Shown here piece after piece: positions 7,553 through 60,779 of a DNA stretch of 64,000 bases. Source of the stretch: a virus; the IMG/VR virus record IMGVR_UViG_3300017987_000006, positions 114,260 to 178,259 of that record; one strand, 5' to 3'. The translations under genes were made by a program, and so were the position numbers. The notes under the pieces were generated by a model that was not told the origin of the DNA, did not search any database, and saw only the letters and a program-made list of their open reading frames with translations. The first letter of the stretch is position 1. The number at the start of each line of letters is the position of its first letter.

Positions 7553-7561
7553 CTTATACCG
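7553..7561 (-). promoter_or_regulatory. GGTATAAG-class promoter motif
   Basis: CGGTATAAG on minus strand; one of about 12 copies, nearly all just upstream of non-structural genes or ncRNA candidates. Confidence 0.7.
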
Positions 7562-11338: not shown

Positions 11339-14300
11339 TGGACCTCGGAACAGTTGGCGCTACACGCTTCTCCAGATCTCGCGGCAGGATAACTGGATCT
11401 GGAACCAGCGGCATCAGCTATCCGAGCCCGTTCTTCGATATCGGGCATACGTACCTGCCCACCACCGTCAAGCAGATGTTCAGGTGGTGTCGGTACTACT
11501 TTTTAGTTCACCCGCTGATCAACTCGATCATCTTCAAGATGGCCCAGTATCCGATCACGGACCTGGTCTATCACACCGACGATCCGCACTTGAAGGACCG
11601 GTGGAGGGAGATCTTCGAGGACGTTCTCAAGTACCGCTGCTTCCAGATGGAGATCGGTCTCGACTTCAACACGTACGGCAACGGGTTTGTCTCAATGTTC
11701 TTTCCGTTCCGGAAGATCATTGAGTGCACGAACTGTCATAACAGCGAGGCCGCAAAGGACGCCAGGTACTACTTCCGCAACTTCCAGTTCTATTGGAAGT
11801 GCCCACGCTGTGGGCACCACGGGCCGACCAAGGTCTATGATCGGTACATCAAGTCGACGCGGGGAATCCGCCTCTTGAGGTGGAACCCGGAGGACATCGA
11901 CGTTCGATACAACGATCTGAACGGCCAGTACACCTACTTCTACGACATTCCCGTGAAGTTGAAGAACGACATCATCATGGGGCGGAGACATATCGTGGAG
12001 GAGGTGCCGCAGGTCTTCATCGAAGCGCTTCGACGGAAGAAGGCTATCGTCTTCAACAACGACAACATCTACCACTTCCGACGCCCGACACTGGCTGGCA
12101 AAGATCGAGGGTGGGGAATCCCATTGATCTTGCCGGTGCTGAAGGACGCCTTCTACCTGCAAATACTGAAAAAATCTCAAGAATGTGTGTCTTTAACCAG
12201 CGAGCTGGAGACATCGGGCGGGCTGGTGCAGGCGGACGATGTTAGGGTTGGGGACCTCGTGAGAACTCATACGGGCGCGTGGAAATCCGTGGAGAAGAAG
12301 TGGTATCGGGACGCCCGAGAAGAAGAGGTCGGCAGGAAGATCACTCTCACGAGTCTTCGTGGGTATCCGACAACGTATTCTCCACAACATCCAATCTTTA
12401 CGATCCGCAGAAACGGGATTAATAGACGGACGGACACGAGAGAAGCTCCACGCTCCTCAATAATTTTGAGCAGGCCGCATCTTTATGAGGAGGTCCTTTG
12501 TCCGGCAGAGTAGTTGGGTATCGGGGAGTACGTCCTCTATCCGCGGTATCTCCCCGTGCAGGAGACAACCTACGTTGACGTTGCTTTAAGGACCGGGTTG
12601 GTGAGTACTGACGGGTTCGTCTATAGTGGGTGCTGTGAGGACACCGCTGTCGCTTTCGAATCTTTGGAGCGGGGAGAAAGGGTACCACACGACAACCCGG
12701 GGCGAGTAGCGAAGAGGGCGATTCGTGATGGGCGCACTCCGAAGAGAATGCCCAGGATCATTCCCATGACGGACGACCTGGCTTACATCCTCGGTTGGTA
12801 TGCTGGTGATGGGAGCTGCAATGCCAGAAGTGTATTTTTCAGCCTTGGGAAAGGGGATGATTCCCTTTCTCTCATCGGGGCTATTCAGCGAGAGTTCGGG
12901 GTTACACCCACCGTGGAGGAGGGAAAATCTGTGAACACGGTGGTACTGTCCGACGTCATCGTACGTCATTTGATCAAGGGCCTAGTACCCGGGACAGCTC
13001 GACATAAAAAAGCCCCAGAAGAGGTGCTCAACGCCCCAAACAGCATGAAACTTTCATACCTGCGTGGGTTGTGGGAGGCAGACGGGTCAGCAGGCGAAAA
13101 GAGTATATGCATCACCTCCACCAGTCGAAACCAAGCATATGACGTATATAGGATCGCGATCCATGTTGGCTGTATCGCTTCCATCGGAAAATCGAAGCCG
13201 AGCGTTAGCGTAATTGATGGAAGAGAGGTACGAAGCAAAGGATCGTACAATGTGACCGTATGCAATGCGTCGGCCGATCGTCTGCGTTCTTTGTGGGAGT
13301 GCGGGGAGGGCCCTGATATTACATCAGGGAAAAGCGGGTTCTTTTGGGGTGACTACTTTGCCACCAGGATCTGCGCAATTGAAGAGGTTGAGGAGGCACA
13401 GTATATAGACTTCAAGGTAGCCGATGACACCACGTTCTGTGTCCCGGGTACGGCCACAAAGAATAGCATTGCGCTCGATCATATCGTCCCACTTCGCGTG
13501 ATGTTCCCGCAGACCGGCTCGGCAACCGCCGACCCATTCTCGATGGTCAACCTCTCGGAATGGAAAGATCAAATCGCTGAGGAGATTCAGCGTTGGAGGC
13601 TCGATAATAACTACATTCCGATCCTCCCGCTCCCCATCGGTAATCAGACCATCGGAGGCGATGGTCGGGCGTTGTTGCTCGGGCAAGAGATCAGAGTGTG
13701 GTCGGAGCAGATCGTCACCGGGCTGGGGATCCCAATCGAGCTCATCTTCGGCGGCCTGTCCTACAGCGGTAGCAATGTATCGCTGCGTATGCTCGAGAAC
13801 ATGTTCATCAACTATATGCACGATCATATCGACCTGACGAAGTGGGTGGTGCGTAAGATCTCTTCTTACATGGACTGGCCATCGATAACGATCAAGTTCA
13901 AGCCGTTCAAGATGGCGGACGACTTGCAGCGTAAGGCGTTCAACCTGCAGCTCTCCCAGGTCGGAAAAATCTCTGACGATTCCCTGCTGTCTGATGCAGA
14001 TTTCGATCCGGACCACGAGGACAAACAGATCGAGAACGAGACCAACCGGCGAGCGGAGGCACAGAAAAAGGCCAGGCTGGCGCAGGCCGAGATCGAAGGC
14101 GCGAGTCAAATGATCATGATGCGCTATCAGATGAAGGCGCAGCAAGAACAGATGCAGATGCAGATGCAGGGAGCTCCGGCTCCCGGGGAGCCGGGAGCAG
14201 AGGCGCACGGCGTCGCGGAGGAGAGTGGGATGCAGCCGCAGCAGCCCCCGCCAGAGCAAGGTGGACCTGGGACTGCTCCGCTTCCTCAACAGATGATGGC

Positions 14301-14652
14301 TGCGCAGGCGCTGCCACCAATTCCGGCCCAGGCCCGCGCCGAGCTACCGCCAGCAATGTCGGAGATGGAGTCACCGCTGAACATGGCGCAGCAAGTGGGT
14401 CAGGTTAATCAAGACCAGGCTGGCCAGATGAACGTGGATCTCATAGCGCAAGCTCAGATGGTGGCGGGGCAGCTGATGCGGATGGACGAGAACAGCCGGA
14501 CGATGGTGCTGATGAACTTGAGACAGCAGTCGCCTGAGTTCTACCAGGTCGTGTTGGGGCTAATGCAGAGCATGGTGGCCGGCGGCCCCACCGCAGAACC
14601 GCCGCCCGAGCAGCAGGCTCCACAGCGGGGCCGCGAGGCCGCCGCAGTCTAG
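11338..14652 (+). CDS. Portal protein with LAGLIDADG intein; in-frame TAG at 12511-12513 inside the intein
   Basis: ORFs 11338-12513 and 12514-14652 are in one frame; portal-like segments (RLLRWNPEDI, IYHFRRPTLAG..GWGIPLI, IALDHIVPLR, GIPIELIFGG); Q/M/P-rich tail. Confidence 0.75.
12184..13464 (+). mobile_element. Intein with homing endonuclease in portal gene
   Basis: Starts CVSLTSEL, block B YSPQHPIF, LGWYAGDGS and LRGLWEADGS motifs, ends TATKN then Ser+1; codon usage differs from flanks. Confidence 0.85.
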
Positions 14653-15491: not shown

Positions 15492-15520
15492 TTGACTCGC
15501 AAAATGTGGGCTGCTATGAT
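15492..15520 (+). promoter_or_regulatory. Sigma70-like promoter of the RNAP gene
   Basis: TTGACT-17 nt-TATGAT with extended -10 TG. Confidence 0.75.
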
Positions 15521-15547
15521 CTTCGTCGTATACACAGGAGTCATCTA

Positions 15548-18500
15548 ATGGCGAGGCTCGCACCTGAAGAGGGGTTCGCCCTCCTCAAAGACCAGGTAGC
15601 GGAGACTGTCAAGGAGATCTTCCCGATCAAGGGAACCAAACACACTCTCCGCCTGGACGACATCGAAGTCAAAGACAACAAGGACATCGAGGACATCCGC
15701 TCCCAAAAGAAGGCGCGGCTAGAAGGCCGCACCTGGTCCGTTCCGGTCAACGGTAAGTTGTCTCTCGTTGATAACAAGACCGGGAAGGTGGTCGATCGGC
15801 GGACTCAGAGGATCATGAGCTTGCCCAAGGTGACCAACAGGCACTCCTACATCGTGGATGGTCAGGAGTACCAGATGGACAACCAGTGGCAGCTCAAGCC
15901 CGGCGTCTATTCCAGGCGTGATGAGAGGGGCGAGCTGGAGTCCATGTTCAACCTGAAGGGTAAGCACGCCTTCAAGGTGAAGTTCGACCCAAAGACAGCC
16001 AAGTTCTCCATGCTCAAGGGGACCACCAACGTTCCGCTCTACCCCATTATGCGCGAGCTCGGGGTGACGGACGAGGACCTCGAAAAGTCGTGGGGCAAGC
16101 AGATCTTGCAGTCCAACAAGGTCAAGTCTTCAGACGCTGCGCTCGAGCGGTTCTACAAAGCCGTAAACAGAGAAAAGCCCTCGGACCCGCGCCAGGCCAG
16201 GGAGTTTTTGCAGGAGTTCATGGACGGGGCGAAGATGGACCCCGACGTCGCCCGCATCACGTTGGGCGATAAGCATGACACTGTCGGCGGAAAGACGATC
16301 CAGCTCGCCTCGCAGAAGCTGTTGGGCATCAGCCGCGGTGACGTGAAACCAGATGCACGCGACAGCCTGATGTTCAAGAACTTCCGCTCGACAGAGGACT
16401 TCGCACGCGAAGCGCTTCAGACCAGGAGTGGAGAGATCTTACGGCGCGTCGGAAATAACCTGGACCGGAAAGGAAAGATCCAGGAGATCGTCGGGCCGGA
16501 CATTTTCAACCGTCCCATCAATGCGCTGTTCAAGAAGGCCAACCTGTCCAACCGACCAGACCAGACCAACCCGCTAGAAATGATCTCCGGAGCGATGAAG
16601 ACGACGATCATGGGTGAGGGTGGTATCACGAGCGAGCATAAGATCACTGAGGATGCAAAGCTCATCGATCCTTCCCACCTCGGTTTTCTCGATCCGATCC
16701 ATACTCCTGAATCGGCGCGAACAGGCGTGTCGTTGCATCTTCCTCTTGGGGCGCGAAAGAAGGGGAACAAGCTCGTCACCAAGATGTACAACATCAAGAC
16801 GGGTAAGATGGAGGATGTCGATCCCGAGACGGCGTACAACGCCAATATCGTCTTGCCAGATCAGGTGAAGTGGAGGGATGGAAAGCCCGTCCCAATCGGC
16901 AAGACCGTCAAGTTCAGCGGCCAGGAAAACGAAATCACAACGGGCAGTATGAAGGGGGCGGACTACGTAATGCCGGCCCCGGCACAGCTCTTCTCTGTCG
17001 CCTCCAATATGATCCCCTTCCTTCAGAACGACTCCGGGAACAGGGCAACGTACGCCAGCAAGCAGATGGAGCAGGCCATCCCACTGAAGCATCGAGAGTC
17101 TCCGTTGGTGCAGACCGTCATCGCCGCAGGGAAGAAAGAGACCAGCCTCAACAAGTTCATGGGGAAGATCAATTCCCATACGACTCCAATTGATGGAGAG
17201 GTTGTGCAGGTCAAAAGCGATAGCGTGGTGATCAAGGGAGCGGACGGGAAGCGCAAGGAGGTTCAGACTTACGACCACTTCCCGTTGAATGACGACAAGA
17301 GCTTCTTGCACTCGACGCCGCTGGTGAAGGTTGGCGATAAGGTCAAGAAGGGGCAGACCGTAGCCGACACGAATTTTACCAAAAAGGGAGATCTGGCACT
17401 CGGATCGAACTTGACGACGGCGTATGTCCCGTTCCACGGGTACAACTACGAAGATGGTGTGGTGATCTCCGAGTCCGGGGCGAAGCAGCTCACGAGCGAG
17501 CACATGCACCGTAAGGGCCTGGACGTCGGCAAGGAGCACACGCTCAGCAAGGACGCGTTCCTCAAGCACTACGGGATGACGCTCAAAAAAGACCAAGCTG
17601 ACAAGCTGGACGACGCGGGCGTGATCAAAAAGGGACAGAGGGTTGGTCCGGGAGACACCCTGGTAGCGGCCTTGCGGCATCGGGAAGAGACGGACGAGGA
17701 CAAGATCCGTAGGCGGATGCACAAGTCGTTGGTCAAACCATACGACAACGTCTCCGTCACCTGGGACAACGATCATCCAGGCGTCGTGACGAACGTGGTG
17801 AAGCGAGGCAAACGCGCAGAGGTTCATGTCAGGACTGAGGAGCCGGCGGAAATCGGCGATAAGATCAGCGGCAGGCATGGGGACAAGGGCATTATCACCC
17901 GCATCGTCCCAGATCACGAGATGCCCACAACCAAGGACGGGAAGCGTGTTCATCTGGCGCTGAACCCGGCGGGGGTTGCTGGACGTATCAATTTGGGACA
18001 GGTCCTTGAGGCAGCGGCCGGGAAGATCGCCGAGAAGACTGGAAAGCCATACCGCGTGCAGAATTTTGACGGCACTGAGGATATGACCGAGCGTGTCCAG
18101 AAAGAGCTCAAAGAGCACGGTCTGTCCGACAAGGAAGAGCTCATCGACCCCAAGACCGGCAAGACGATGGGGAGGGCTTTGGTGGGGCCGCGGTACATGC
18201 ACAAGCTTAGACACCAGGTCGGAAAGAAGCTCGTAGCCCGTGCTGGAGGACCGGACTACGCCTACGATATGAATCGCATTCCGAAGCGTGGCGGTCCGCA
18301 CGGGGCGCAGGCGTTGGACTCTTTGGGGGTCTACGCGATGTTGGCTTCCGGAGCCAAGGCGAATCTTCGTGAGATGCAGACTTACAAGAGCAACGCGGAG
18401 AACAACGATGAGCTGTGGTCTGCGGTTCAGACTGGAGATCCACTCCCAGCTCCCAGGCCCTCATTCGCCTACAACAAGTTCGTCGGCATGCTCAAGACTA

Positions 18501-21500
18501 TCGGCGTCAACACGGTCAAGCAAGGCAACACACTGAACCTGATGCCGCTGACGGACAAGCAAGTCAGGGAGATGAGTGAGGGTAGGACGATCAAGGACGC
18601 CGGGAAGATGGTCCTCGGGAAGAACCTCAAAGAGGAGAAGGGAGGCATCTTCGATAAGGACGCGACGGGCGGGCTGAACGGGACCAAGTGGTCCCATATC
18701 GAGCTGCCCGAGCGGATGCCGAATCCGATCTTCGAGAAGGCCATTGTCAGCCTCACCGGCATCAAGAAAAAAGATCTCGGCGCGCTGATGGACGGCAGCA
18801 AGGCCCTCAACACCAAGACGGGTCAGTTCACGTCGCCGGAGGAAGGGGTCTCGGCGGGAAAGGCTGTCGAGCACCTGCTGAAAAAGATCGATGTGGACGC
18901 GGAGCTCGCCTCCGCACAAAAGCAGATCCAAAACCCAAGCCTGAAAGGAGACAGGCTGGACAAGGTTAACAAGAAGATCAAATATCTGCGCTCGTTGAAG
19001 AAGCTGGGAATGACGCCGACGGAGGCGTACATGACCAAGACCGTGCCTGTCCTCCCGCCATCCATGCGTCCTCTGGCCGTGCGCCCCAACGGAGAGCTCG
19101 GTGTCGAAGATCTGAATGGGATGTACAAAGGTCTTGGCATCGCCATCAACAAGATGAAGGATGCCAGCCCGCTGCAGCTACCGGAAAAGATCAACAAGAG
19201 ACGAGCGGCGATCTATGATGCGATGAAGGGTCTGGCCGGGACTGGGGGGTACCTCAACCGAGACTACCGCGGGGTACTCGACATCATCGCCGGGAAGAAA
19301 GCGCAGGGTCCGGAGGGAAAGCCTGGGAGTCCGCGGGAGAGTTACTTCCAGTCCAAGTTGATCAAACGGAAGCAAGATCTGTCGATGCGGTCCACCATCA
19401 TCCCCGAGCCTGAGCTCGGCCTGGATGAGGTTGGGATCCCTCGCAAGGCTGCGATGGAAATGTACAAGCCGTTCATCGTCAGGGAGTTGGGGAACTTTGC
19501 TGGGCTGAGCCCACTGGCGGCGCAGCAAGCCATCAAGGACAGGGACCCGCTGGCCGCGCGTGCGCTGGAACGTGTGGTCAAAGAACGTCCGGTGATGTTG
19601 AAGCGCGATCCGGTCCTCCATAAGTACGGAGTACAAGCATTCAAGCCGGTGCTCACTAGCGGCAAGGCGATCAAGATCCATCCCCTGGTGACTGGCGGAT
19701 TCAACGCCGACTTTGACGGCAATTGTGTTGACGGCTGCTCCGAATTGGTGATAAGGTGTTCTGGTCTTGCGAGGGAGCACTTTATGAAATTCGGAGCAGA
19801 GTCTTTGACAGTGGCGAGAGATCCTGCGCTTGGGATCAATGCCGACCGTATTATGATCAAGAACTTTCCACGGGAGGAAGAACCACACAGGTACGATCGA
19901 AATGGCGCTGCCGTCTACCGTGTCCCGGACGGATTGCAGGTCCTTTCGTACGATCACTTCTTGGGTGAGTCGACGTTCGAGGACGTCACTGAGCTAACCA
20001 TCGAGGAGGACTGTCCTGTAGTCGAAGTGCGTTATGCGTCTGGACACAAGGTTACTGCTTCTACTAATGAGTCTTTGTGTGTCTATGACCACGAGACGGG
20101 AATGCTGCGCAAGGCACGGCCGGAGGAATCTGTAGGGGCACTAAGCCCTGTCATCTCGTCTCCTCCCGGTGATAAGCACGACAAGTTTTTCGGGTGGATG
20201 GTAGGCGCTTTTGTGTCTGATGGATTCTTCACCAACGGGCGCATCGGAATCACCAAAGTCGATGACGAGTTCCGCTCAACGTTTGGGGATGCTCTAAGAA
20301 CGTTCGGCGATGTGTACGCAAGCAACACATACCGCAGAGAAAAAAAGGCACCGACCGATTTCTCAGAGCATAGCGTCAAAGATCACTACACCGTGGGGGG
20401 AGAGATCAAAGACCTGTTCATGAGGTGCTACACCGTAGAGTACAGATCTTATCTACGGGATGGAACGCGGAGCGGCGAATTAAAGAATAAGCGGGCAGCA
20501 CTATACAAGCGCCTACCACAGGACATCGGCGACTATTCCAGAGATGCCTTGCTCGGTGTATTGTCCGGCTTGTTGGATGGGGATGGGACACTTTCCTGGA
20601 GCAGGTCTAAAACGAAGGAGCAGTTCCTGGCTTCGTATTCCACCAGCTCCCACCAGCTGATGGAAGACGTCCGATATTTGTGTCACTTGCTAAATGTTCG
20701 CTGCTCTGTGTCACCAGTCTACCCCCGTGCGAATAGGGCGCAGAGGCACATCAACTATGTCATCTCATTCAGCACCGTAGATATTGAGAAGCTGGCTGGG
20801 GAGTTGCGCCTCGCTGCTTACTCGGATACGTTGATCAAACTGGCAGCGAACCCGCTGTCCAAGGATGATCGGGACGTGGTTCCTGTGCCGATATCGATCT
20901 TACGCGGCATGATCAGTAAGAAGAGTGTGGTGTTCAAAAAAGACCCAAAGCTCTGTAGATCGCTGGCTACGTTGGCGTCAAAAAATAAGAGACGTCCGAG
21001 GGTCTCCAGAGACACGGCGCTCAGAATGGTCCCCTATCTGAATTTGGAAAACGCACTGGAAGCATATTGGTCATCCTTAGTGAAATCTGATGTCCGATGG
21101 TCTTACGTGAAAGAAGTCGAAGATAAGGGAAAGACGACCGTATACGATTTGGTCGTGCCTACTACCAAGATCTTCGCGGTCAATGGTGGGCTGGTGGTGT
21201 GGGACACCATGGCGGCATTCGTTCCTCTGACCTCCGAGGCGGTGGACGAGGCGCGGAAGATGTATCCATCCAGGAACCTTTTCAGTCCCGCTACCGGAAG
21301 CTTGATGTACAAGCCGACGAAGGAGAGTCAACTTGGGCTCTACAAGCTGACCCAGCAGGGCAAGCGGACGGACAAGGCGTTCAAGACCGTGGCCGAAGCT
21401 GCGAGGGCTGCCTCAGCAGGATCCGTGGGGATGACTGATGTGGTCAAGATTGGCGGACAGCAGACCACCATTGGGCGCGCTCTGGTAGCCAACGCGCTAC

Positions 21501-23248
21501 CTCAATCCATGCGCGGCGGTGTGATGAGCGGGAAGACCCCACTGGACGGGAAGGGGCAGACGGAGCTGCTGACTCGCTTGGCGAAAGATCACAAGGGGTC
21601 ATTCGGCGAAGTCGTCAACAAGATCAAAGACCTCGGAAACAGCTACGCCACGCAGACCGCTTCTTCGCTTGGCCTCGAAGATCTCCGCGCCGACAAGAAG
21701 CTGCGGGACCGCATCCTAAAGTCCGCGGACGCCAAGGTGAAGGAGATCATGTCGGGGAAGGGGACGAAGGAGCAAAAGCAGAAGAAGGCGATCCAGATCT
21801 ACGACAAAGCATCGGAGGCAATGATCAAGGCTGCCGAAATCGACCACGCCAAAAACCCTACTGAGCTATTTCAAATGTTGAAGGCGGGGATCAAACCGCA
21901 GATGGGCGCGTACCGTCAAATCACCATGGCTCCGATGCTGATGATGAACGCCAAGGGCAAGGTCATTCCAGATCCAATCCGCAAGTCCTACTCTGAGGGC
22001 ATCGATGTGGGCGACTACTGGACGCAGATGTCCGGGGCGCGCAAGGGCGTTGTACAGAAGGTCCAGTCTGTCCAGGAGCCTGGGTACTTTACCAAGCAGG
22101 TAATCAACTCGGTGATGAACAACGCCATCGGGGAGCAGGACTGCGGGACCAAGAAGGGGATCACACTCCCTATAGAAGAGCGCGACGTGCTAGATCGATA
22201 CCTGGCAAAGGACACCAAGTCAGGACGCAAGACCTTCAAGGCAGGGACCTTGATCACTCCCGGTGTTCGCGACAGTCTCAGGAACAACCGCGTCGGCCGT
22301 GTCGTCGTTCGTTCTCCGCTCCGATGTGAGCACAGCGGAACGGGGATTTGTGCTCGGTGTTATGGTAACGATGAGGATGGGGCTCCCCCACCCACCGGCC
22401 GGAACGTCGGCATCATCAGCGCCCAAGCCATCGGCGAGCGGGCAACTCAGCTCGCCATGCGGACCTTCCACGAAGGCGGGGTGGCCCCTGTCGGCGCGGC
22501 GGGGAAGCAGAAGGCCGCACTGACGGACGAGTTCAACCGGGTGCAGCAGCTCGTTCAGATGCACCAGAACATCCCTGGGTCTGCTCCTCTCAGCTCAGTC
22601 AACGGGAGGATAACCAAGATCCAAAAAGATCCTGCTGGCGGGAGCAACGTGTTCATCTCGGCGGGAGATAAAGAAGTACGCCACTATGTCCCACAAAACC
22701 GGGGCGAGCCGCTGACGTTTGTGGGGGACAGGGCCAGAAAGCTGACGCGTGGTATGCAGATCCAAAAGGGTGCTCCCCTCTCGGCCGGTCCGATAAACCC
22801 GAACGAGCTGTTGCCCCTGGCGGGAGTGAACAAGGTGCAGGGATACCTGGCCGGACAGATGTACGATCTGTACAAGCAGCAGGGGATACGTCGGAGGAAC
22901 ATCGAGACCGTCGTCAAGAGTATGACGAACCTGACCAAGGTTTCTGACCCGGGCGGACAGTCGGACTTCATTCGAGGCGACTTCGCCCCTACGTCCAAGC
23001 TCCAAGCGCTCAACAAGAAGCTGGTCGCGCAGGGAAAGAAGCCTATCGCACACAGGCCGGTGTTGAAGGGGGTCAAAACGTTGCCGCTCGACATGCAGAC
23101 AGACTGGATGGCAAGATTGAACCATGAGCAGCTTGCTGGTACAGTCGTCGATGCGGCGAACCAAGGATGGAGCAGCAATATCCACGGAGAGCATCCGATC
23201 CCAGCGCTTGCCTACGCAGCTGAATTCGGAAAGAAGAAACCATACTAG
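15548..23248 (+). CDS. Multisubunit-type RNA polymerase, beta and beta' fused in one chain, with intein
   Basis: Beta motifs GFLDPIHTPE, GYNYEDG, GDKISGRHGDKG, KLRHQV; beta' motifs KRDPVLH, NADFDG, RSPLRC...CARCYG, AQAIGERATQLAMRTFH; ATG 15548 with AGGAG. Confidence 0.95.
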   Translation: MARLAPEEGFALLKDQVAETVKEIFPIKGTKHTLRLDDIEVKDNKDIEDIRSQKKARLEGRTWSVPVNGKLSLVDNKTGKVVDRRTQRIMSLPKVTNRHSYIVDGQEYQMDNQWQLKPGVYSRRDERGELESMFNLKGKHAFKVKFDPKTAKFSMLKGTTNVPLYPIMRELGVTDEDLEKSWGKQILQSNKVKSSDAALERFYKAVNREKPSDPRQAREFLQEFMDGAKMDPDVARITLGDKHDTVGGKTIQLASQKLLGISRGDVKPDARDSLMFKNFRSTEDFAREALQTRSGEILRRVGNNLDRKGKIQEIVGPDIFNRPINALFKKANLSNRPDQTNPLEMISGAMKTTIMGEGGITSEHKITEDAKLIDPSHLGFLDPIHTPESARTGVSLHLPLGARKKGNKLVTKMYNIKTGKMEDVDPETAYNANIVLPDQVKWRDGKPVPIGKTVKFSGQENEITTGSMKGADYVMPAPAQLFSVASNMIPFLQNDSGNRATYASKQMEQAIPLKHRESPLVQTVIAAGKKETSLNKFMGKINSHTTPIDGEVVQVKSDSVVIKGADGKRKEVQTYDHFPLNDDKSFLHSTPLVKVGDKVKKGQTVADTNFTKKGDLALGSNLTTAYVPFHGYNYEDGVVISESGAKQLTSEHMHRKGLDVGKEHTLSKDAFLKHYGMTLKKDQADKLDDAGVIKKGQRVGPGDTLVAALRHREETDEDKIRRRMHKSLVKPYDNVSVTWDNDHPGVVTNVVKRGKRAEVHVRTEEPAEIGDKISGRHGDKGIITRIVPDHEMPTTKDGKRVHLALNPAGVAGRINLGQVLEAAAGKIAEKTGKPYRVQNFDGTEDMTERVQKELKEHGLSDKEELIDPKTGKTMGRALVGPRYMHKLRHQVGKKLVARAGGPDYAYDMNRIPKRGGPHGAQALDSLGVYAMLASGAKANLREMQTYKSNAENNDELWSAVQTGDPLPAPRPSFAYNKFVGMLKTIGVNTVKQGNTLNLMPLTDKQVREMSEGRTIKDAGKMVLGKNLKEEKGGIFDKDATGGLNGTKWSHIELPERMPNPIFEKAIVSLTGIKKKDLGALMDGSKALNTKTGQFTSPEEGVSAGKAVEHLLKKIDVDAELASAQKQIQNPSLKGDRLDKVNKKIKYLRSLKKLGMTPTEAYMTKTVPVLPPSMRPLAVRPNGELGVEDLNGMYKGLGIAINKMKDASPLQLPEKINKRRAAIYDAMKGLAGTGGYLNRDYRGVLDIIAGKKAQGPEGKPGSPRESYFQSKLIKRKQDLSMRSTIIPEPELGLDEVGIPRKAAMEMYKPFIVRELGNFAGLSPLAAQQAIKDRDPLAARALERVVKERPVMLKRDPVLHKYGVQAFKPVLTSGKAIKIHPLVTGGFNADFDGNCVDGCSELVIRCSGLAREHFMKFGAESLTVARDPALGINADRIMIKNFPREEEPHRYDRNGAAVYRVPDGLQVLSYDHFLGESTFEDVTELTIEEDCPVVEVRYASGHKVTASTNESLCVYDHETGMLRKARPEESVGALSPVISSPPGDKHDKFFGWMVGAFVSDGFFTNGRIGITKVDDEFRSTFGDALRTFGDVYASNTYRREKKAPTDFSEHSVKDHYTVGGEIKDLFMRCYTVEYRSYLRDGTRSGELKNKRAALYKRLPQDIGDYSRDALLGVLSGLLDGDGTLSWSRSKTKEQFLASYSTSSHQLMEDVRYLCHLLNVRCSVSPVYPRANRAQRHINYVISFSTVDIEKLAGELRLAAYSDTLIKLAANPLSKDDRDVVPVPISILRGMISKKSVVFKKDPKLCRSLATLASKNKRRPRVSRDTALRMVPYLNLENALEAYWSSLVKSDVRWSYVKEVEDKGKTTVYDLVVPTTKIFAVNGGLVVWDTMAAFVPLTSEAVDEARKMYPSRNLFSPATGSLMYKPTKESQLGLYKLTQQGKRTDKAFKTVAEAARAASAGSVGMTDVVKIGGQQTTIGRALVANALPQSMRGGVMSGKTPLDGKGQTELLTRLAKDHKGSFGEVVNKIKDLGNSYATQTASSLGLEDLRADKKLRDRILKSADAKVKEIMSGKGTKEQKQKKAIQIYDKASEAMIKAAEIDHAKNPTELFQMLKAGIKPQMGAYRQITMAPMLMMNAKGKVIPDPIRKSYSEGIDVGDYWTQMSGARKGVVQKVQSVQEPGYFTKQVINSVMNNAIGEQDCGTKKGITLPIEERDVLDRYLAKDTKSGRKTFKAGTLITPGVRDSLRNNRVGRVVVRSPLRCEHSGTGICARCYGNDEDGAPPPTGRNVGIISAQAIGERATQLAMRTFHEGGVAPVGAAGKQKAALTDEFNRVQQLVQMHQNIPGSAPLSSVNGRITKIQKDPAGGSNVFISAGDKEVRHYVPQNRGEPLTFVGDRARKLTRGMQIQKGAPLSAGPINPNELLPLAGVNKVQGYLAGQMYDLYKQQGIRRRNIETVVKSMTNLTKVSDPGGQSDFIRGDFAPTSKLQALNKKLVAQGKKPIAHRPVLKGVKTLPLDMQTDWMARLNHEQLAGTVVDAANQGWSSNIHGEHPIPALAYAAEFGKKKPY
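19724..21205 (+). mobile_element. Atypical intein with LAGLIDADG endonuclease in the RNAP active-site motif
   Basis: CVDG block A, VGAFVSDG and LSGLLDGDG motifs, VYDLVVP block F, ends VVWD then Thr; preceded by DFDGN; lower GC than flanks. Confidence 0.85.
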
Positions 23249-27283: not shown

Positions 27284-28155
27284 TTGAAGAGTACCGTAGC
27301 CCCAGCGAGTTCTTCATCCGCTTCTTGTTCTCGGCACAAGAAGATCCGGACGTGGATGAAGTGCGGGCCAAGTTGATCAACTTGGGTCTGGACTGTGTCG
27401 ATATATCCTACCTCGAGTCTCTGTCACAGACGATGGAGCCCAGGCCCGACGATTATCAGCCGGACAATCCACGCCACCGACCGACCAGGGAGTATTTGAA
27501 GAAGCATAAGATCTACGACATGTGGAATCCAACGCCGGCCGTCAAGGAGGCTCAGCTCATCCTCCTCGACGTTTTTTTACGTGAGAAGCTCGAGCCGATG
27601 CTTCTGTCCAGCATGCCTCATCACCAGATAGCCAACCGGTTGCGGAAGTACACCGCCATTGCATTGTCCGAACAGGGTGTCCTGGCCTACGCACACTACT
27701 TTTGGAACCGCTCATTGATGCCGCAGTCTCTTTGGGTTGACTACCTAAAGCGCCGCTTTGGGAACTCCTACGTTCAAGGCGTGCAGACCCCCCGCGACTT
27801 GGCCTCAAAACACATGCCGTGGGTGGTGAACATCTCTGGTCCGTATGGTACGTTCAACACGGCCGAAGCATCGGCCAGGATCGGACAGATCGCATTCAAG
27901 CACGCCCTGGAGCTGGAGCACGAGAAGGCCACGGTCGAGACGACGATGGCGCTCAAAAACTGTATGATCACTATCGAGAAAGCAGACGTAATCATGCGCC
28001 GCAGCGAGGTTGCACTGCGCGACGTGTTGCGGCAGTTCCAGCGGTTCCGTGTGAAGCTGGCTGACGCGAAGATCGTACCCATTCAACAGCTGACGGATGG
28101 GAACTACAGTAAGTCCGGAGAGGGTACGGACACGGACAACGAGGAAGACTTCTGA
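27280..28155 (+). CDS. Hypothetical protein, possible terminase small subunit
   Basis: Helical with acidic tail, upstream of TerL; function inferred from position only. Confidence 0.4.
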   Translation: MIEEYRSPSEFFIRFLFSAQEDPDVDEVRAKLINLGLDCVDISYLESLSQTMEPRPDDYQPDNPRHRPTREYLKKHKIYDMWNPTPAVKEAQLILLDVFLREKLEPMLLSSMPHHQIANRLRKYTAIALSEQGVLAYAHYFWNRSLMPQSLWVDYLKRRFGNSYVQGVQTPRDLASKHMPWVVNISGPYGTFNTAEASARIGQIAFKHALELEHEKATVETTMALKNCMITIEKADVIMRRSEVALRDVLRQFQRFRVKLADAKIVPIQQLTDGNYSKSGEGTDTDNEEDF

Positions 28156-28168
28156 TCAGGAGGCTAAG

Positions 28169-28681
28169 GTGAATGATCTACCGAGACCAGCTTTCAGTAC
28201 TGTGGCTGAAATCGACAACGGCATTGACGTAGTAGGCAACGCTTCGGATACCACGGTGGAGAACGTGGAAAAGGCGGTCCCCGCGTGGACGCTCGTGTCT
28301 GACAGCAACATCGCCTGCGTCCGGTACCTCAAGTCGGGGGACGATTTGATCTACTGCATCTTTCGTGGAGCCGAGGTTCCTGAACGCTTCTGGGGAACGG
28401 GGGAGTTCGGGCTGTGCGTGTTGAGCGCCGTAGAAAGTAGTTGGCCGTACGACGACCCGAAGGTCGAGTTCATCCCGGCGCTATTTCGAGAAGAGGGCGT
28501 GGCTGACGATCCCCGCAGCGGTCCAGCGAAATATCCGGACTACTTCTACGGCGGGTACAGAGTGGAGGTGAAGAACGCGTTGAAGAAGCCGGTGTTGACG
28601 GAGGAGAAGATCGAGAAGCTGTCAGTCCGACTGGAGGAGGCAGCAGACGCCGCCATAGCTAAATGGTCGAACGGGAGCTAA
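28169..28681 (+). CDS. Hypothetical protein
   Basis: GTG 28169 with AGGAGG. Confidence 0.6.
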   Translation: MNDLPRPAFSTVAEIDNGIDVVGNASDTTVENVEKAVPAWTLVSDSNIACVRYLKSGDDLIYCIFRGAEVPERFWGTGEFGLCVLSAVESSWPYDDPKVEFIPALFREEGVADDPRSGPAKYPDYFYGGYRVEVKNALKKPVLTEEKIEKLSVRLEEAADAAIAKWSNGS

Positions 28682-29026
28682 AGGGGGGTGCGGCCCGCAG
28701 GCCGCCCACCATTGATCGACAAAGACGCACCGAGGCACAACATCCGCCTCGAATGGATGCGCGCTTTGCATCCTTCAGTGCGTCCTTGCCGAGCAGGCAT
28801 GTAGGCACTAAGTTGATCCAGCAAGGAGAAAACACCGTTGGTGTAAAACGCTCGGACGCGTTGGTACAGTCGTCCGTAGGACCGGTGCCCAATGAGCGAG
28901 GCGAACGACTCGGATGATGAACGTCGCTCGAACTTCAACTAGAGACGAACGTCTCGCTACGGCTGGTGAGGCCGCCTCCCTCTGTAGGGCCGGCAGGGAG
29001 GTGGAAACGCTAAGCGTGTTTCCATC
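28682..29026 (-). ncRNA. Candidate ~350-nt structured non-coding RNA
   Basis: GGTATAAG promoter at 29033-29041, many stems (15-bp stem 28716-28730/28778-28792 with G-U pairs valid only on the minus strand), terminal c(UGCG)g hairpin followed by CCCCUUU. Confidence 0.55.
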
Positions 29027-29032
29027 AAAGAC

Positions 29033-29041
29033 CTTATACCG
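29033..29041 (-). promoter_or_regulatory. GGTATAAG-class promoter motif
   Basis: CGGTATAAG pointing into the 28.7-29.0 kb intergenic region. Confidence 0.65.
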
Positions 29042-29059
29042 AACAATGGACCATTATTG

Positions 29060-30937
29060 ATGCTTGTCGACCTTGCCAAAAAACGCCGTATCGAGGCCAA
29101 CAGGATCGTCCCTGTGTCTTATGTGGCCCAGGTCGGGGCCGATGGTAAGACCTACTCTGAGCCGTACCTCGATTACGCTGACGGCCCAGATGGAGAATAC
29201 GGGGCCGGGGAAGAGGAGTACTACGACTTCGATGATGAGCCTCGTGACCCAACCGCAGAGGAGTTCGCGGCAGGTAACTTTATCTACAATGTGTCCCCGT
29301 CCGAGTTCACAGAGACGGCAATCAAGATCGCTACCAGCGGCAAGGCGTCTAACTTCTCCTTCACCGAGCGCCCCTACCTGGCCCGCATCTACAACACTAA
29401 CTCCCCGAGAACATTACTAAAATTCGCGCGACAGACTGAAAAGAGCACGACGCTCGGCAACAAAATGATCTGCTACGCCTGTTTGATCAACCACTTTCGG
29501 GCGCTCTATGTAGCGCCGTCGGCGGAGCAGGCCAAGACGTTTTCCAATGACCGTATCGCAGATGTGATCAATCTGTCTCCGTTAGTCAAGGCGTACACCA
29601 ACACATATCTGACCAACGCAGTCTTCCAGAAGAAGTTCATCAACTACTCCAACATCCGACTCCGTTACGCCTACTTAACGGCCGACCGTGTGAGAGGAAT
29701 CCCTGCGGACAAGATCGATATTGACGAGCTGCAGGACATCCTGGTCGACAACATTCCCGTCATCGAGGAGTGTGCATCGCACTCGGAGTGGAAGATCTTC
29801 ACCTATTCCGGGACGCCCAAGTCGCTTGACAACACCATCGAGCACTACTGGTCAAACTTCTCCACGCAGAACGAGTGGGTCGTTCCCTGTGATCGTCACG
29901 GTACGCCAAATAATCCTTCGTCGTGGCACTGGAATATTTTAGACGAGGACAACATCGGCAAGGATGGACTCGTCTGCGACAGGTGCCACGAGCCCATCGA
30001 CCCGAACCATCCGATGGCGCAGTGGGCCGCCATGCAGCCGATGACGGACGCCAACAAGGACAAGGTTACCTACGAGGGGTACCGCATTCCTCAGATCATG
30101 GTGCCGTGGATCTTGAACAAAAAGGACGGCTGGGCAAGCGTCCTGGAGAGACAGGAGCGGTACAGCCGGCAGAAGTTCTACAACGAGGTCCTAGGTATCA
30201 GCTATGATTCAGGAACACGTCCCATTACCAAGGCACAGCTCAAAGCGTGCTGTAGGCCGGAGATTAGACCTGGAGACTACGAGCACTTCAGGTCTGTCAC
30301 CGCGGGAACTGAGGTCTTCGCTGGATTGGATTGGGGTACGGGAGAGCAATCCTACACAGTGATCTCCCTTGGCGCATACATGGGAACTGGCAACTTTACG
30401 ATCTTTTGGATCCATCGCTTCACCGGAAAAGACCTGGAGCCTCCGGCACAGCTAGATCGTATCTGTACGATCTTAACCCAGTTCAATGTCAAGCTGTGTG
30501 GCTGTGACTACGGCGGCGGGTTTGATCGCAACGATCACCTCATCAGAGCCTTTGGCCCGCAGAAGGTGTTCAAGTTTCAATACAACAATAACCAAAAGAA
30601 GGGGAAGGTGTACTGGGAGGAACGCCTGCGAAGATTCGCTGTGCACCGCACAGAGGTGATGAGCGATGTATTCGGGGCGCTGGTAAGGAAGCAGATCGAC
30701 CTGCCGAACTGGGATGACTTCATAGAGCCGTACGGTCAGGACATCTTGAATATCTTCAGCGAGTACAATGAGACGACCAGGATGACCAAGTTCAACCACG
30801 CGCCGGGAACGACGGACGATTCGTTCCACTCGATCTTGTACTGCTTCCTCGCCTCTATGATCAGATTCCCGCGCCCAGACATTATGGCCGAGATGCAGGA
30901 CACAGGGGAAGACGACTATCCAAAGCGGAGGCGGTAG
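29060..30937 (+). CDS. Terminase large subunit (lambda GpA-like)
   Basis: RPYL..IY, ARQTEKST Walker A, IDIDELQD Walker B, SGTPKS, CxxH/CxxC, GLDWG RNase H-fold nuclease motif. Confidence 0.9.
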   Translation: MLVDLAKKRRIEANRIVPVSYVAQVGADGKTYSEPYLDYADGPDGEYGAGEEEYYDFDDEPRDPTAEEFAAGNFIYNVSPSEFTETAIKIATSGKASNFSFTERPYLARIYNTNSPRTLLKFARQTEKSTTLGNKMICYACLINHFRALYVAPSAEQAKTFSNDRIADVINLSPLVKAYTNTYLTNAVFQKKFINYSNIRLRYAYLTADRVRGIPADKIDIDELQDILVDNIPVIEECASHSEWKIFTYSGTPKSLDNTIEHYWSNFSTQNEWVVPCDRHGTPNNPSSWHWNILDEDNIGKDGLVCDRCHEPIDPNHPMAQWAAMQPMTDANKDKVTYEGYRIPQIMVPWILNKKDGWASVLERQERYSRQKFYNEVLGISYDSGTRPITKAQLKACCRPEIRPGDYEHFRSVTAGTEVFAGLDWGTGEQSYTVISLGAYMGTGNFTIFWIHRFTGKDLEPPAQLDRICTILTQFNVKLCGCDYGGGFDRNDHLIRAFGPQKVFKFQYNNNQKKGKVYWEERLRRFAVHRTEVMSDVFGALVRKQIDLPNWDDFIEPYGQDILNIFSEYNETTRMTKFNHAPGTTDDSFHSILYCFLASMIRFPRPDIMAEMQDTGEDDYPKRRR

Positions 30938-31408: not shown

Positions 31409-32185
31409 TTATCCCAGTTTTTTGATCCGATTTGCACCAGATGGGTGTTGGATCTCAGAGGCGATGTAGCGATCTAGGGAATCCTCGGACTCTCCGAAGG
31501 AGGCGATGTGGCGCATTCGTACTGGCCCCACCCTTGCTGCGTGATTCTCCGATAGGATGAGCGCTGCTCTGGACAGGCTCTTGCGAGCTTTCTCAAGTAC
31601 GCGGTACGCCTGCTGCTGCTCTGGGTTGCCGGAGAAACCCTTGCGGCGGCGGAGGGCGGACATGAGGCCCAGGCAGAGCTCGTGGAATGGGTGCCACGGC
31701 TCGTGGTCCTGGGTGGGGCCGACCATCCTCTCCAACTCTATCTCGCTGAGCTGCAGAAAGACGTCTGCCCAGTCCCGCATCTTATCAAGGGGGACCTGCG
31801 TTAGATCTATGTCGAGATAGTCCGCGGCCTCATCGTACAATTCTATCAGCTCAGCTGTGCTGGAATCACGAAGCCCGGAAACATTCAAATCGGCTACGCG
31901 CATGAGGAAGTCTAGCCGGTCTTCCATGCTCTGGAGTTTGACCTTTACTCCGTGAAGTAGATCCCACAGATCGGATAAGTTGAGCTTTTTCTGGCCCGCT
32001 TCTTTGAGAGCGCGCAGGTCTGCCTTTCTGATCCACCACTTTTTGCCGTGGCCTCTGATCTTGCGTACTCTCAAAATGCCTGCCGAGATGTAGTTCTCGA
32101 CAGTCCTGGTGGTCTTGTTCAAGAACTTGGCGGAATCGACCACAGTCAAGTACTCTTGGACACTTCCCATCGGTTTCCTCCACAT
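31409..32185 (-). CDS. Helix-turn-helix DNA-binding protein (excisionase/MerR-like N-terminus)
   Basis: YLTVVDSAKFLNKTTRTVENYISAGILRVRK...WWIRKADL. Confidence 0.7.
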   Translation of the reverse strand: MWRKPMGSVQEYLTVVDSAKFLNKTTRTVENYISAGILRVRKIRGHGKKWWIRKADLRALKEAGQKKLNLSDLWDLLHGVKVKLQSMEDRLDFLMRVADLNVSGLRDSSTAELIELYDEAADYLDIDLTQVPLDKMRDWADVFLQLSEIELERMVGPTQDHEPWHPFHELCLGLMSALRRRKGFSGNPEQQQAYRVLEKARKSLSRAALILSENHAARVGPVRMRHIASFGESEDSLDRYIASEIQHPSGANRIKKLG

Positions 32186-32228
32186 GCTACTCTCCATAAG
32201 TACCAACTGGACCGAATCGCGGCAAGAA

Positions 32229-32257
32229 TTGACCGATCTGTTTTTGGGGCGTAGTAT
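32229..32257 (+). promoter_or_regulatory. Sigma70-like promoter of the head/tail operon
   Basis: TTGACC-17 nt-TAGTAT upstream of 32278. Confidence 0.7.
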
Positions 32258-32277
32258 TTGCTCCTTGAGAGGTGAAC

Positions 32278-33438
32278 ATGCCAAGCACCAGGGATGAGGG
32301 CTCGATCCCCCAGGGTATTCTCGAGCAGGCGTCAGCCAAAAGTGTTGATCCCGCTCATCTTCAGTTTCTAGGCAAGCAGGCCGCCGCGCTCTACGCCGAA
32401 AACAAGACGAAGCTGTCCGAGGCCGTCGTCAACGTCATCGGTAGAGAGGACCTCGGCCCCGAACACACACGCCGTGTGTGCGAGTTCGCCAACCAAGCCG
32501 CCTTCCAGAACGAGTGGGAAAAGGGCGGCTCCGTGCGTAACATCGAGTTCGAGGGCGGGGTGGCAGATCCATCCGAGGTCTTGAAAGAGATGCACGATGG
32601 GGCCAGGGACGATGCCGTCCGCGTGAGCTCGGACTACGATGCTCCGCCCCCGGCACGTGAGCGGGCGGACAGCTCGGTGGAGAATGAGATCTTCGGCAAG
32701 TACGCGCAGGCCAGCGTGCATCCATCGGAGGTCCCCTCCGGCATGCCGGACCTGTACGCTCTGCGGACGTCAATCAATGGGGCACAAGATCACATCCACT
32801 CCAAGATCTCAGGCCTCGAGGTCACCAAGGAGGCCGTGGAACGCGACCTGGGCGATGAGGTCTGCAACGCGGTCTTGAATGGCTCCAGCCTGTACAAGAT
32901 CGGCAGCGCCTGGACGAACTACACCGATCGGCCGGAGGTTTTTGAGGATGCCATGTCCGTTTCGATCTCCAGGATGGCCGAGCGCGGCGTGACCAAGAAC
33001 ACTCAAGAGGTCGAGAAGCTGGCCTCCCCGTCCGCTGTCGGTACGCTCCCGAACCCGAAGCACCCCGTCATCTCCCGCTTCGTGGAGTTCGTGAAGATCG
33101 CTACGGAGCTACACAAGCTCAAGGGCGCTCAGGACGTCCTCAGTGAAAAGACAGTCGAGGTGAACGAGGCAATCAAAGAGGCGGAGGGAGGAAAGGGCGG
33201 GCTACTCAAGGGACTGTATGCCGCGGGGAAGGGCGCACACAAGGCGTACTGGGGAGCGGGCAAGAAGATGTCCCAGGAGATGGCCAAGGCTGGTATCGAG
33301 AGCCCGACGGCGCACCTGTTAGCGAAGGCTGCGCCCACCGCGGGGGCAGTGGTCGCTGGGAAGGCGGCGTACGATTCTCCAACCGGTCAGCGCATCCGGT
33401 GGAAGATCCAAGATGCGGAATACCAAGATGCGGAATAG
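32278..33438 (+). CDS. Putative head/internal virion protein
   Basis: RRVCEFANQAAF; GKQAA, GKYAQ, EKLAS, VKIAT, IKEAE. Confidence 0.6.
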   Translation: MPSTRDEGSIPQGILEQASAKSVDPAHLQFLGKQAAALYAENKTKLSEAVVNVIGREDLGPEHTRRVCEFANQAAFQNEWEKGGSVRNIEFEGGVADPSEVLKEMHDGARDDAVRVSSDYDAPPPARERADSSVENEIFGKYAQASVHPSEVPSGMPDLYALRTSINGAQDHIHSKISGLEVTKEAVERDLGDEVCNAVLNGSSLYKIGSAWTNYTDRPEVFEDAMSVSISRMAERGVTKNTQEVEKLASPSAVGTLPNPKHPVISRFVEFVKIATELHKLKGAQDVLSEKTVEVNEAIKEAEGGKGGLLKGLYAAGKGAHKAYWGAGKKMSQEMAKAGIESPTAHLLAKAAPTAGAVVAGKAAYDSPTGQRIRWKIQDAEYQDAE

Positions 33439-53715: not shown

Positions 53716-53757
53716 CACCTTTCTTATACCATAACGATCGCCGGTTTTTAAGGTTCG

Positions 53758-54633: not shown

Positions 54634-54789
54634 TTAGATCTCCTCTCTGGTTTGTACAATTCTTATACCCAGAAGAGGGATCAATTTCAGTGAGCTAAGA
54701 AAGGCCCCCGCAACGGTGTGCCTGCTCCGCGGCAGGGGCCTTAGAGAATCAAAGGTACCAACTCTAATCCTCCAAAGCCCTTATACCGC

Positions 54790-55797: not shown

Positions 55798-55919
55798 TTG
55801 ATCTCCTTTTTGGGTTGTACTTTTCTTATACCGATTTATGAGGAAATTCGGATCAGATCGTGGTATAGGATCTCTGCTTTCGTTGGGGAATTACCCCCGA
55901 CACAACATAGGAGGAAGAA

Positions 55920-58799: not shown

Positions 58800-58914
58800 G
58801 TAAACTCCTTTCGTTGAATAGCTTATACCGAATTCTCGACGATTTGTGTTGACAATAACTCTGAGTGTGATCTTCTTCGAAAGATCGCTCAAGCCAAAAA
58901 ACGGAGGTAACAGA

Positions 58915-60684: not shown

Positions 60685-60779
60685 TGTGTCCTCCTTTTGC
60701 GGTGTTCAAAAACAAACTGCGTGTGATTCCGGAACATGATCCTTATACCGATCAAATTGCAGAAATTCGGAGGTGAGAA

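Follow-up and report, generated by a model that had tools for sequence, protein, structure and literature searches.

Large structured RNAs known from phages are few, and a function has been assigned to only a minority of them. GOLLD and ROOL, two of the RNAs with which the locus described here has to be compared, tend to be located close to tRNA genes. It is also well established that the cis-antisense RNAs of phages (OOP of lambda, sar of P22 and c4 of P1/P7) and of plasmids (CopA and RNA I) come from small genes that lie on the opposite strand within an operon and possess their own promoter and a terminator hairpin. GOLLD and ROOL are frequent in phages or prophages (PMC12286853), and 14 of the motifs in a catalogue of structured RNAs from IMG/VR precede a putative large terminase (PMC10690425). 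The subject of this report is a stretch of 64,000 nucleotides (the window), which forms the final 64 kb (positions 114260-178259) of IMGVR_UViG_3300017987_000006, a complete 178,259-bp IMG/VR record of an uncultured phage with terminal repeats. Within it, we describe the intergenic gap at 28682-29056 (window positions, here and below, unless a genome or a locus is named), bounded by an upstream open reading frame (ORF) of 170-194 aa and by the gene of the large terminase subunit (TerL), both on the plus strand.

The best reading of this gap, drawn from the comparison of related sequences, is that it would encode a stable and highly structured non-coding RNA of ~345 nt, the founding member of a new family, with around 11 helices named P1, P2, P2b, the P3 domain, P4, P5, P6', P6, P7 and P8. 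On the minus strand, the predicted RNA occupies 28679..29026: its start is placed by inference at G29026, and it runs as far as the U-tract past the terminal hairpin. That a structured RNA is really made from this strand appears to us highly probable. A new structured minus-strand RNA of ~350 nt beside TerL had been proposed in an initial annotation of the stretch, and the proposal is now supported by 12 homologs, by about 11 helices with compensatory changes, by a promoter, by the tetraloops and by an excess of G·U pairs.

Fold, homologs and covariation of the predicted RNA

The minus strand of the element folds at -149.6 kcal/mol, compared with -132.3 +/- 5.3 kcal/mol for dinucleotide shuffles (z = -3.25), and none of 100 shuffles is as stable. 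The stems listed in the initial annotation (P1, P2, P4, P5, the three-way junction and the terminal UGCG hairpin) could each be located in the sequence, and their presence, together with the excess of folding energy, indicates that the structure is real. The plus strand of the element folds equally well (z = -3.21); taken by itself, the window decides neither which strand is the relevant one nor whether the structure is under selection. The hallmarks of known RNAs, which had been described as missing, were also missing from the searches: Rfam 15, whose families include pRNA, GOLLD, ROOL, OLE, 6S, tmRNA, RNase P, group I/II introns, riboswitches and known phage sRNAs, gave zero matches at the gathering score across the whole window, the rows obtained for 28400-29300 at E up to 10 were at chance level (the best, CC3552, scored 21.6 bits against a threshold of 50), and ARAGORN reported no tRNA or tmRNA gene in the window.

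Read from its predicted 5' end, the minus-strand molecule begins with the P1 hairpin (GGAAAC...GUUUCC, 29003..29023), whose loop carries a conserved CUAGC/CUACC, and continues with the P2 hairpin (CCUCCCU...AGGGAGG, 28975..29001), in which five of seven pairs have changed on both sides within a subgroup of seven sequences. The P3 domain (28895..28958) combines a covarying outer stem, an invariant CG-U-CUC / GAG-U-CG stem and a variable apical hairpin, and its conserved internal loop is made of UCUAG(U/C)UGAA (28934-28947) and CAUC(A)UC(C/U)GAGUCG (28906-28919). A GAGAC/GTCTC stem that had been listed does exist in the window, but the family pairs GUCUC with a downstream GAGUC within P3, and the former pairing is thus specific to the window. 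In the P4 hairpin (CGGACG...CGUCCG, 28853..28876), 92.7% of cells pair and nine of the ten pairs have changed on both sides. In the L055 subgroup the P4 loop, GGGGU, could pair with a downstream ACCCC to give an H-type pseudoknot, which is not evident in the window copy; this additional helix is mostly invariant, with a sole compensatory case, GGAGU/ACUCC, in L174.

The P5 hairpin (ACACC-AAC-GGUGU, 28832..28844) bears GAAA or GCAA tetraloops in the relatives. It is followed by the P6' helix (CCUUGC...GCAAGG, 28784..28826), which surrounds a conserved GUGCCU island (28803-28808) and covaries in the family, as in CCCGCCA/UGGCGGG, CCCGGUU/AACCGGG and UCCACCA/UGGUGGA. The P7 three-way junction (28724..28784) has the closing stem GACGCAC/GUGCGUC and the helices P7a (GGAUGC/GCAUCC, 28755-28773) and P7b (CGAGGC/GCCUCG, 28731-28751), and the same architecture, in differing sequence, is found in 12/12 homologs. 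The 15-bp stem that was first drawn to close this junction stands in part: the closing stem covaries, whereas the outer six pairs compete with P6' in the window. At the end of the molecule, the P8 hairpin (GCGGCC-UGCG-GGCCGC, then CCCCUUUA; 28679..28705) is a probable intrinsic terminator, and the conserved GC hairpin with its CC-UUU(U)A is what places the 3' end of the RNA. Since P8 and the U-tract overlap the stop codon of the upstream gene, this gene and the RNA gene converge.

A search by TerL protein and DNA pattern identified 11 further distinct homologs (12 with the window), namely L002, L052-L057, L172, L173, L174 (identical to L163) and L175; four members of the family come from IMG/VR. 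Every homolog sits between a gene of ~170 aa and a TerL sharing 66-76% identity with that of the window, in a gap of 283-403 nt. The mean sequence identity within the element is ~57%, and the same series of hairpins is built from different sequences. Islands of complete or almost complete conservation, read on the minus strand, are GGTATAAG, (C)GUCUCUAG(C)UGAA, CUCCAUCUGAGUC, GUGCCU, GGUGCGA and the terminal hairpin.

Pairing was tested on MAFFT alignments that were built blind to structure, with shuffles (500) and slid positions as controls. Over the three domains, the observed pairing is 77-85%, compared with 27-54% in the slid controls, and neither the paired percentage nor the covariation score is reached by any of the 500 shuffles. 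In the domain formed by the three-way junction and the terminal hairpin (eight sequences), 85.3% of cells are paired, as against 73.8% in the shuffles (0/500 reach it) and 38-51% after sliding; 20 of the 30 pairs of the three-way-junction domain have changed on both sides where 9.6 would be expected (again 0/500), and in the P7 closing stem 90% of cells pair and ten of 12 pairs are compensatory. For P3 (alignment A5, 12 sequences) the paired fraction is 77.1% (0/500 shuffles; slid controls 27-42%), 11 of 16 pairs have changed on both sides (1/500 shuffles) and the covariation score is reached by 0/500. The P4-P6 region (ten sequences) is 81.5% paired (0/500), with changes on both sides in 16 of 30 pairs (2/500), and in P1/P2 (seven sequences) eight of 18 pairs are compensatory. 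On the aligned sequences, then, the predicted RNA has the generic mark of a structured non-coding RNA, which is the presence of compensatory helices beyond shuffled and slid controls. The initial annotation had made its proposal depend on two points, covariation among relatives and a match to a known family; covariation is present, and there is no Rfam match.

Covariance models of these domains retrieve all or most of the family. The models R1, R2 and R3 each matched the element of the window once (E = 2.5e-10, 7e-12 and 2e-11, respectively). R1 recovered L054 and L052, neither of which was in its seed, and R2 found 12/12 homologs at E <=6e-9 and a single copy in the phage genome; as a control of specificity, the top score of R2 was 22.7 bits among ~115 random loci carrying both anchor motifs (a loose pattern). 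Neither R1 nor R2 had a match in the loci of TerL relatives below ~60% identity on which the models were run.

Judging from the sequences compared, the RNA is confined to one subclade of uncultured phages. No DNA match for the element was obtained in the phage GenBank collection, and a pattern search of 185,579 prokaryote genomes found no element. A phage with 62% TerL identity lacks the gap altogether, and in relatives whose TerL is ~50% identical a protein gene occupies the slot instead. Two candidates, L021 and L178, were dropped as chance pattern matches, and L022 was unusable because the contig ends inside an intein-bearing TerL. In L177 (64% TerL identity) there is a 290-nt gap (L177:2211-2500) with GCTATAAG and a family-like 5' end (GAAGAGC...CUAGCC), lacking the P3 motif; the RNA may be present here in a reduced or divergent version. 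A search with window positions 28400-29300 located the sequence in four DNA metagenome runs (sediment and seawater), which are possibly the source samples, and in no RNA run.

Promoter, strand and the same slot in sister clades

The -10 element of the putative promoter, GGTATAAG (a TATAAG hexamer preceded by GG), lies on the minus strand at 29033..29040; it is invariant in 12/12 homologs and is found once per related locus of 7-12 kb. The phage genome has 13 copies, compared with ~3.5 expected from base composition (an estimate), and ten of the 13 are on the minus strand. Eight of the 13 have a Shine-Dalgarno sequence and a start codon downstream, in the direction of the motif, within ~45 nt (about 20-45). 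This genome-wide evidence and the sister-clade evidence given below confirm the promoter, CGGTATAAG, that had been called at first, and the right-hand coordinate then given to the element, 29026, coincides with the start predicted for the RNA. Other copies in the window are located at 7553-7560, 53723-53730, 54662-54669, 54780-54787, 55825-55832, 58822-58829 and 60742-60749 on the minus strand, and at 56442-56449 on the plus strand, and five more are found elsewhere in the genome. The copies ending at 53730 and 54787 have no ORF start downstream, and they may head further small RNAs or leaders.

In the sister clades, the same slot and strand hold a conserved gene of 113-122 aa, which runs on the minus strand relative to TerL (L005:466-828, L007:2551-2916, L009:2422-2790, L010:1477-1842 and L016:1020-1382). 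In six of the nine loci examined, GGTATAAG stands 6 nt ahead of the start codon of this gene, which is the arrangement of a leaderless mRNA; this spacing fixes the direction of transcription and would put the start of the window RNA near G29026. The encoded protein belongs to no known family (Pfam/PHROG) and has no homolog elsewhere in this genome. The possibility that the element is a remnant of the sister-clade gene of 120 aa was considered and rejected, the best match of 14 of these proteins to the gap by tblastn having E = 0.07.

The loops and the wobble pairs of the family also bear on the strand. Four-base loops of the GNRA/UNCG class make up 15 of 40 on the minus strand and two of 35 on the plus strand (chance ~5%). 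The P8 loop is a minus-strand UNCG/GNRA loop in 7/12 homologs (UUCG in three, and UGCG, GAAA, GUAA and GCGA), and never a plus-strand one. Among the consensus pairs, which were drawn up on the minus strand, there are 84 G·U against 41 A·C (binomial p = 1.5e-4), and P1 retains a U·G pair in six of seven subgroup sequences, in addition to many G·U pairs. A and U are equal at unpaired positions. It had been stated that the G-U pairs and the UNCG loop work only on the minus strand, and the family tetraloops and the consensus G·U pairs agree with this, although the part that concerns G-U pairs is not visible in the window alone.

The bridging frame and the proposed control of TerL

On the plus strand, the gap is covered by two tiled ORFs. 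ORF-a (84 codons, 28663..28917) begins 19 nt before the stop of the upstream gene and forms the first half of a bridging frame, and ORF-b (48 codons, 28914..29060) has an ATG that overlaps the stop of ORF-a (ATGA) and a TGA that overlaps the ATG of TerL (TGATG). In 8/12 homologs, a single plus frame of 133-137 codons (frame 2, zero stops) is open across the gap; its start codon precedes the upstream stop by ~18 nt or more, and it extends to 12 nt or less from the TerL start. The first impression that the gap has no credible ORF is true of the window alone, but it passes over the two tiled ORFs and the single frame of most relatives. Summed over the 12 homologs, stop triplets number 13 in the bridging frame and 31-65 in each other frame. 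In each of the 11 homologs examined (all but L175), a chain of ORFs ends at most 12 nt from the TerL start; that of L173 consists of three ORFs, each restarting 3-7 nt from the preceding stop.

The synonymous fraction, calculated over aligned codons that differ at one base, is 0.31 in the bridging frame and 0.28-0.34 across all six frames, compared with true-frame values of 0.80 in TerL and 0.61 in the upstream gene. The runs of alignment gaps are mostly not multiples of three, the middle part is read in differing frames among the homologs, and neither the four full-length bridging-frame translations nor the two ORFs of the window have a Pfam/PHROG match. Amber or opal recoding of a minus-strand frame was also considered and rejected: the frame has only TAG stops in the window and only TGA stops in L055, and stop counts are at chance. 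By these tests the element is free of protein-coding constraint on either strand. The combination of an open frame and the lack of an amino-acid signature implies that selection keeps the frame open and ignores the sequence that it encodes. TerL has no Shine-Dalgarno sequence in the window or in most homologs, and about two thirds of the surveyed plus-strand genes of the window have one. The simplest reading is that ribosomes would have to cross the gap by translation in order to reach TerL, which would give coupling and protection from polarity, and the open, freely varying plus frame is a clean candidate for such translational bridging into a terminase gene that has no ribosome-binding site.

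The function that we propose, with a confidence that stays somewhat below even, is that the RNA is a stable cis-antisense regulator of the translationally coupled TerL. Granted that the minus-strand RNA is real, the antisense mechanism as such would have a probability between somewhat below even and even. It was chosen because the geometry (opposite strand, complementarity and head-on promoter) is that of cis-antisense regulators: the bridging frame, which is intercistronic and ends at the TerL start, lies on the strand opposite to the RNA. As envisaged, the RNA would be made from the minus strand by a GGTATAAG-type promoter, the upstream part of which overlaps the TerL start codon; transcription would begin near 29026 and would end at the GC-rich hairpin with its short U-tract. 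TerL, with no ribosome-binding site of its own, would be reached by the ribosomes that translate the bridging frame. The RNA would be perfectly complementary to this entire frame, and its promoter would fire head-on against transcription into TerL. While promoters of the GGTATAAG class are active, duplex formation (as a block to ribosomes or an entry point for RNase III) and transcriptional collision would keep TerL expression low, and once the class is off TerL would be produced. The initial annotation described the RNA as antisense and adjacent to the terminase gene; it is indeed adjacent, but it is antisense to the unconstrained plus frame that leads into TerL and not to TerL. Should the RNA indeed regulate the terminase, late genes would be timed by an antisense switch of unusual complexity, in a phage with an RNA polymerase (RNAP) of its own.

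Several observations weigh against this proposal, some of them concerning the antisense function and others the RNA or its strand. The ~11 conserved helices, the conserved internal loops and the three-way junction exceed the needs of a plain antisense RNA, which points to a three-dimensional function or a partner, and the RNA leaves the TerL start codon itself uncovered. Four members of the family (the window, L052, L054 and L173) have an interrupted bridging frame, retained only in the form of ORF chains, and a possible Shine-Dalgarno sequence precedes TerL in some homologs. The putative terminator has a short U-tract (3-4 U), which a few C residues separate from the stem. As for the strand, the count of G·U in consensus pairs is somewhat biased to the minus strand by the derivation of the structures on it; whole-molecule fold energies are split, being better for the minus strand in 6/12 homologs and for the plus strand in the other six; and a strand-symmetric count in the shared helices is undecisive (G·U 7 vs A·C 9 inside, 39 vs 55 at the ends).

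The main rival is a structural or ribonucleoprotein RNA acting in trans, either as a part of the packaging apparatus (pRNA-like) or as a ligand of the beta-beta' RNAP or of another phage or host protein, so that its place beside TerL would reflect co-regulation or a shared function and not antisense action. We consider this possible, though on the unlikely side. It is favoured by the ~11 helices and by the conservation of sequence in their loops and internal loops (UCUAGCUGAA / CUCCAUCUGAG, GUGCCUGAUUUGGGC and GGUGCGA), by the three-way junction of 12/12 homologs, by the stabilising tetraloops, by the GGGGU/ACCCC pairing, which might form within or between molecules, and by the constant position beside TerL; moreover, the RNA may have assumed the role of the 120-aa protein whose gene fills the slot in the sister clades and is absent from this genome. 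However, Rfam, including pRNA, gives no match, a fold search with the AlphaFold2 model of the co-occurring upstream protein shows no recognisable RNA-binding fold, and no gpA-type terminase is known to use RNA. Acting in trans, the RNA would be a new ribonucleoprotein component in phage biology. The sister-clade gene has the same length and the same promoter, and its protein is absent here, which makes it conceivable that an RNA has replaced a protein: the folded 345-nt RNA would have taken over from the leaderless gene its place, promoter and length, as a component or cofactor of the packaging or late-expression machinery. Such a replacement appears distinctly unlikely to us; if true, it would add to the phi29 pRNA a second packaging RNA, independent and from outside that group, which works with a lambda-type terminase, and the GGGGU/ACCCC pairing and the junction could drive self-assembly.

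The remaining explanations place selection on the plus strand, on a peptide or on the DNA. That the selected object is the plus-strand mRNA, with a structured intercistronic segment and a bridging ORF that set the arrival of ribosomes at TerL, and with a minus-strand promoter that is incidental or serves only for transcriptional interference, seems unlikely. The plus strand does fold equally well, the helices are nearly all Watson-Crick and can be formed by both strands, and the open frame, the stop/start overlaps and the flanking genes are all on the plus strand; yet the conserved U·G and G·U pairs, like the classes of the tetraloops, suit the minus strand only, the hairpin with a U-run exists in the minus and not in the plus direction, and GGTATAAG does not vary even where it coincides with third codon positions in the plus frame, and is a promoter element elsewhere and in the sister clades. 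The transcript might also be a near-leaderless mRNA that encodes a micropeptide (22-29 aa) ahead of a long structured 3' region, or might have a dual function, which we regard as improbable. Such a reading would agree with the AUG at +2/+3 of the predicted start in 8/12 homologs (and at +5 in a ninth, L052), with the 26-29-codon ORF (M-x-R-[DV]-L-P...VSS) that in six homologs ends at a UGA within the conserved GUCUCUAGCUGA, with the length changes of L174 and L054 in steps of three and with the leaderless slot gene of the sister clades. Nevertheless, this AUG is absent in L002, L053 and L173, the window (22 codons, 29003-29025 region) and L052 use another frame and other stops, and the ORF of L054 runs for 101 codons; there is no minus-strand coding signature, the ORF lies inside the covarying P1/P2, and ~260 nt of conserved structure extend beyond it. 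It is very improbable that the element acts as DNA, that is, as a cos/pac packaging site or an origin ahead of the terminase gene, comparable to cos in lambda-like phages: the gpA-type TerL, the position directly upstream of it and the conserved sequence islands would fit, but packaging sites are conserved as protein-binding sequences and not as ~11 hairpins with compensatory changes, the GNRA/UNCG loops and wobbles are strand-specific, and the element is bounded by a promoter and a terminator-like hairpin. Finally, the plus frame might be a fast-evolving protein gene, for instance that of a small terminase subunit of 133-137 aa overlapping the TerL start. The frame is open in 8/12 homologs, its stop overlaps the TerL start or lies next to it, which is the classic position of the small subunit, and it is called as a gene in L057; this is still extremely improbable in view of a synonymous fraction equal to that of the off-frames and far from the 0.61-0.80 of its real neighbours, the lack of a Pfam/PHROG match, a frame that varies among homologs and is broken in four of them (the window, L052, L054 and L173), and a translation rich in Arg, Gly, Pro and Ser, as an off-frame reading would give.

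Genome setting and comparison with known RNAs

The upstream gene (28097..28681, plus strand) has a longest ORF of 194 aa, and the database cluster and the relatives use ~170 aa. Just six clusters of homologs of this protein were found, it co-occurs with the RNA, and on the sequences available the gene is restricted to the RNA-bearing clade. It was considered as a small terminase or an RNA binder and is not recognisable as either: the PDB sequence search returned a single chance-level row, and the AlphaFold2 model (pLDDT 80.7) had no PDB fold match at E <=0.001. TerL itself (29060..30937, plus strand) is of the gpA type (phrog_675, 1e-66; PF05876, 1e-10), and its closest cultured relative, that of the Salmonella phage Arash, is 29% identical. 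Inteins (Intein_splicing and LAGLIDADG_3 domains, in proteins of 800-1050 aa) occur in many TerLs of the group, including L022:1-2356, P0009, P0012, P0014, P0015, P0044 and others, and the TerL of the window is intein-free. Directly past TerL, at 31409-32284 on the minus strand, there is a 291-aa HTH_17 (excisionase/MerR-type) protein, whose position is kept in relatives and which is a candidate small terminase subunit or regulator.

Further upstream, an ORF of 2580 aa (15506-23248, plus strand) contains a beta part (Rpb2 domains 3 and 6) fused to a beta' part (Rpb1 domains 2, 3 and 5) and is split by a LAGLIDADG intein; this fusion implies that the phage encodes its own multisubunit-type RNAP as one polypeptide. 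A 712-aa ORF with a LAGLIDADG_3 domain is located at 12514-14652 (plus strand). A second ORF-poor and well-folding stretch, of ~330 nt, lies at genome ~104140-104470 on the minus strand, ~9.8 kb before the window, after a GTCATAAGA motif. It was examined as a paralog of the element and rejected, as the two share only a 13-nt match (UCCCUGCCGGCCC) and neither blastn nor R2 identifies it as a paralog.

In full-text literature searches no description of this RNA was found. Among known systems, the phage and plasmid cis-antisense RNAs mentioned at the beginning share with the predicted RNA the opposite-strand small gene within an operon, the promoter and the terminator hairpin, and the lambda OOP-type RNAs, with their stabilising stem-loops and their perfect complementarity to the mRNA that they control, are the working analogy for the proposed mechanism. 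They differ in having 60-110 nt and one to three hairpins, in contrast to ~345 nt, ~11 helices, a three-way junction and conserved internal loops; in addition, the element covers an unconstrained bridging frame and not a ribosome-binding site, and no Rfam model of that kind matched. The phi29 pRNA (RF00044) is likewise phage-encoded, has a three-way junction and is associated with a packaging function, and loop-loop pairing is possible in the element. A match to the pRNA model was sought in Rfam and not found, the element is twice the size, and the phi29 system has a protein-primed genome and the gp16 ATPase, as opposed to the gpA-type TerL of this phage.

GOLLD, ROOL, OLE and raiA are, like the element, large many-helix RNAs of unknown function that were recognised by comparative genomics. 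The element gives no Rfam match to them, is smaller, is restricted to a clade and has a constant position beside TerL; the proximity of GOLLD and ROOL to tRNA genes is not shared, since this window has no tRNA gene. The IMG/VR motifs share the data source and the kind of evidence, which is covariation in phage intergenic regions, and, compared by their description, they differ in their length (29-151 nt) and in lying upstream of a psiM2_ORF9-type terminase (PMC10690425). Closer at hand, the leaderless gene of the sister clades has the same slot, strand and GGTATAAG and nearly the same length (~345-365 nt), but it is clearly conserved as a protein-coding gene, unlike the element, which has neither tblastn similarity to it nor a coding signature. 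Whether it regulates TerL or acts in trans, the predicted RNA would be a well-defined new family suited to structure probing or cryo-electron microscopy, distinguished by its predicted promoter and end, its position beside the gene of the packaging ATPase, its ~11 covarying helices and its protein-gene counterpart in the sister clades.

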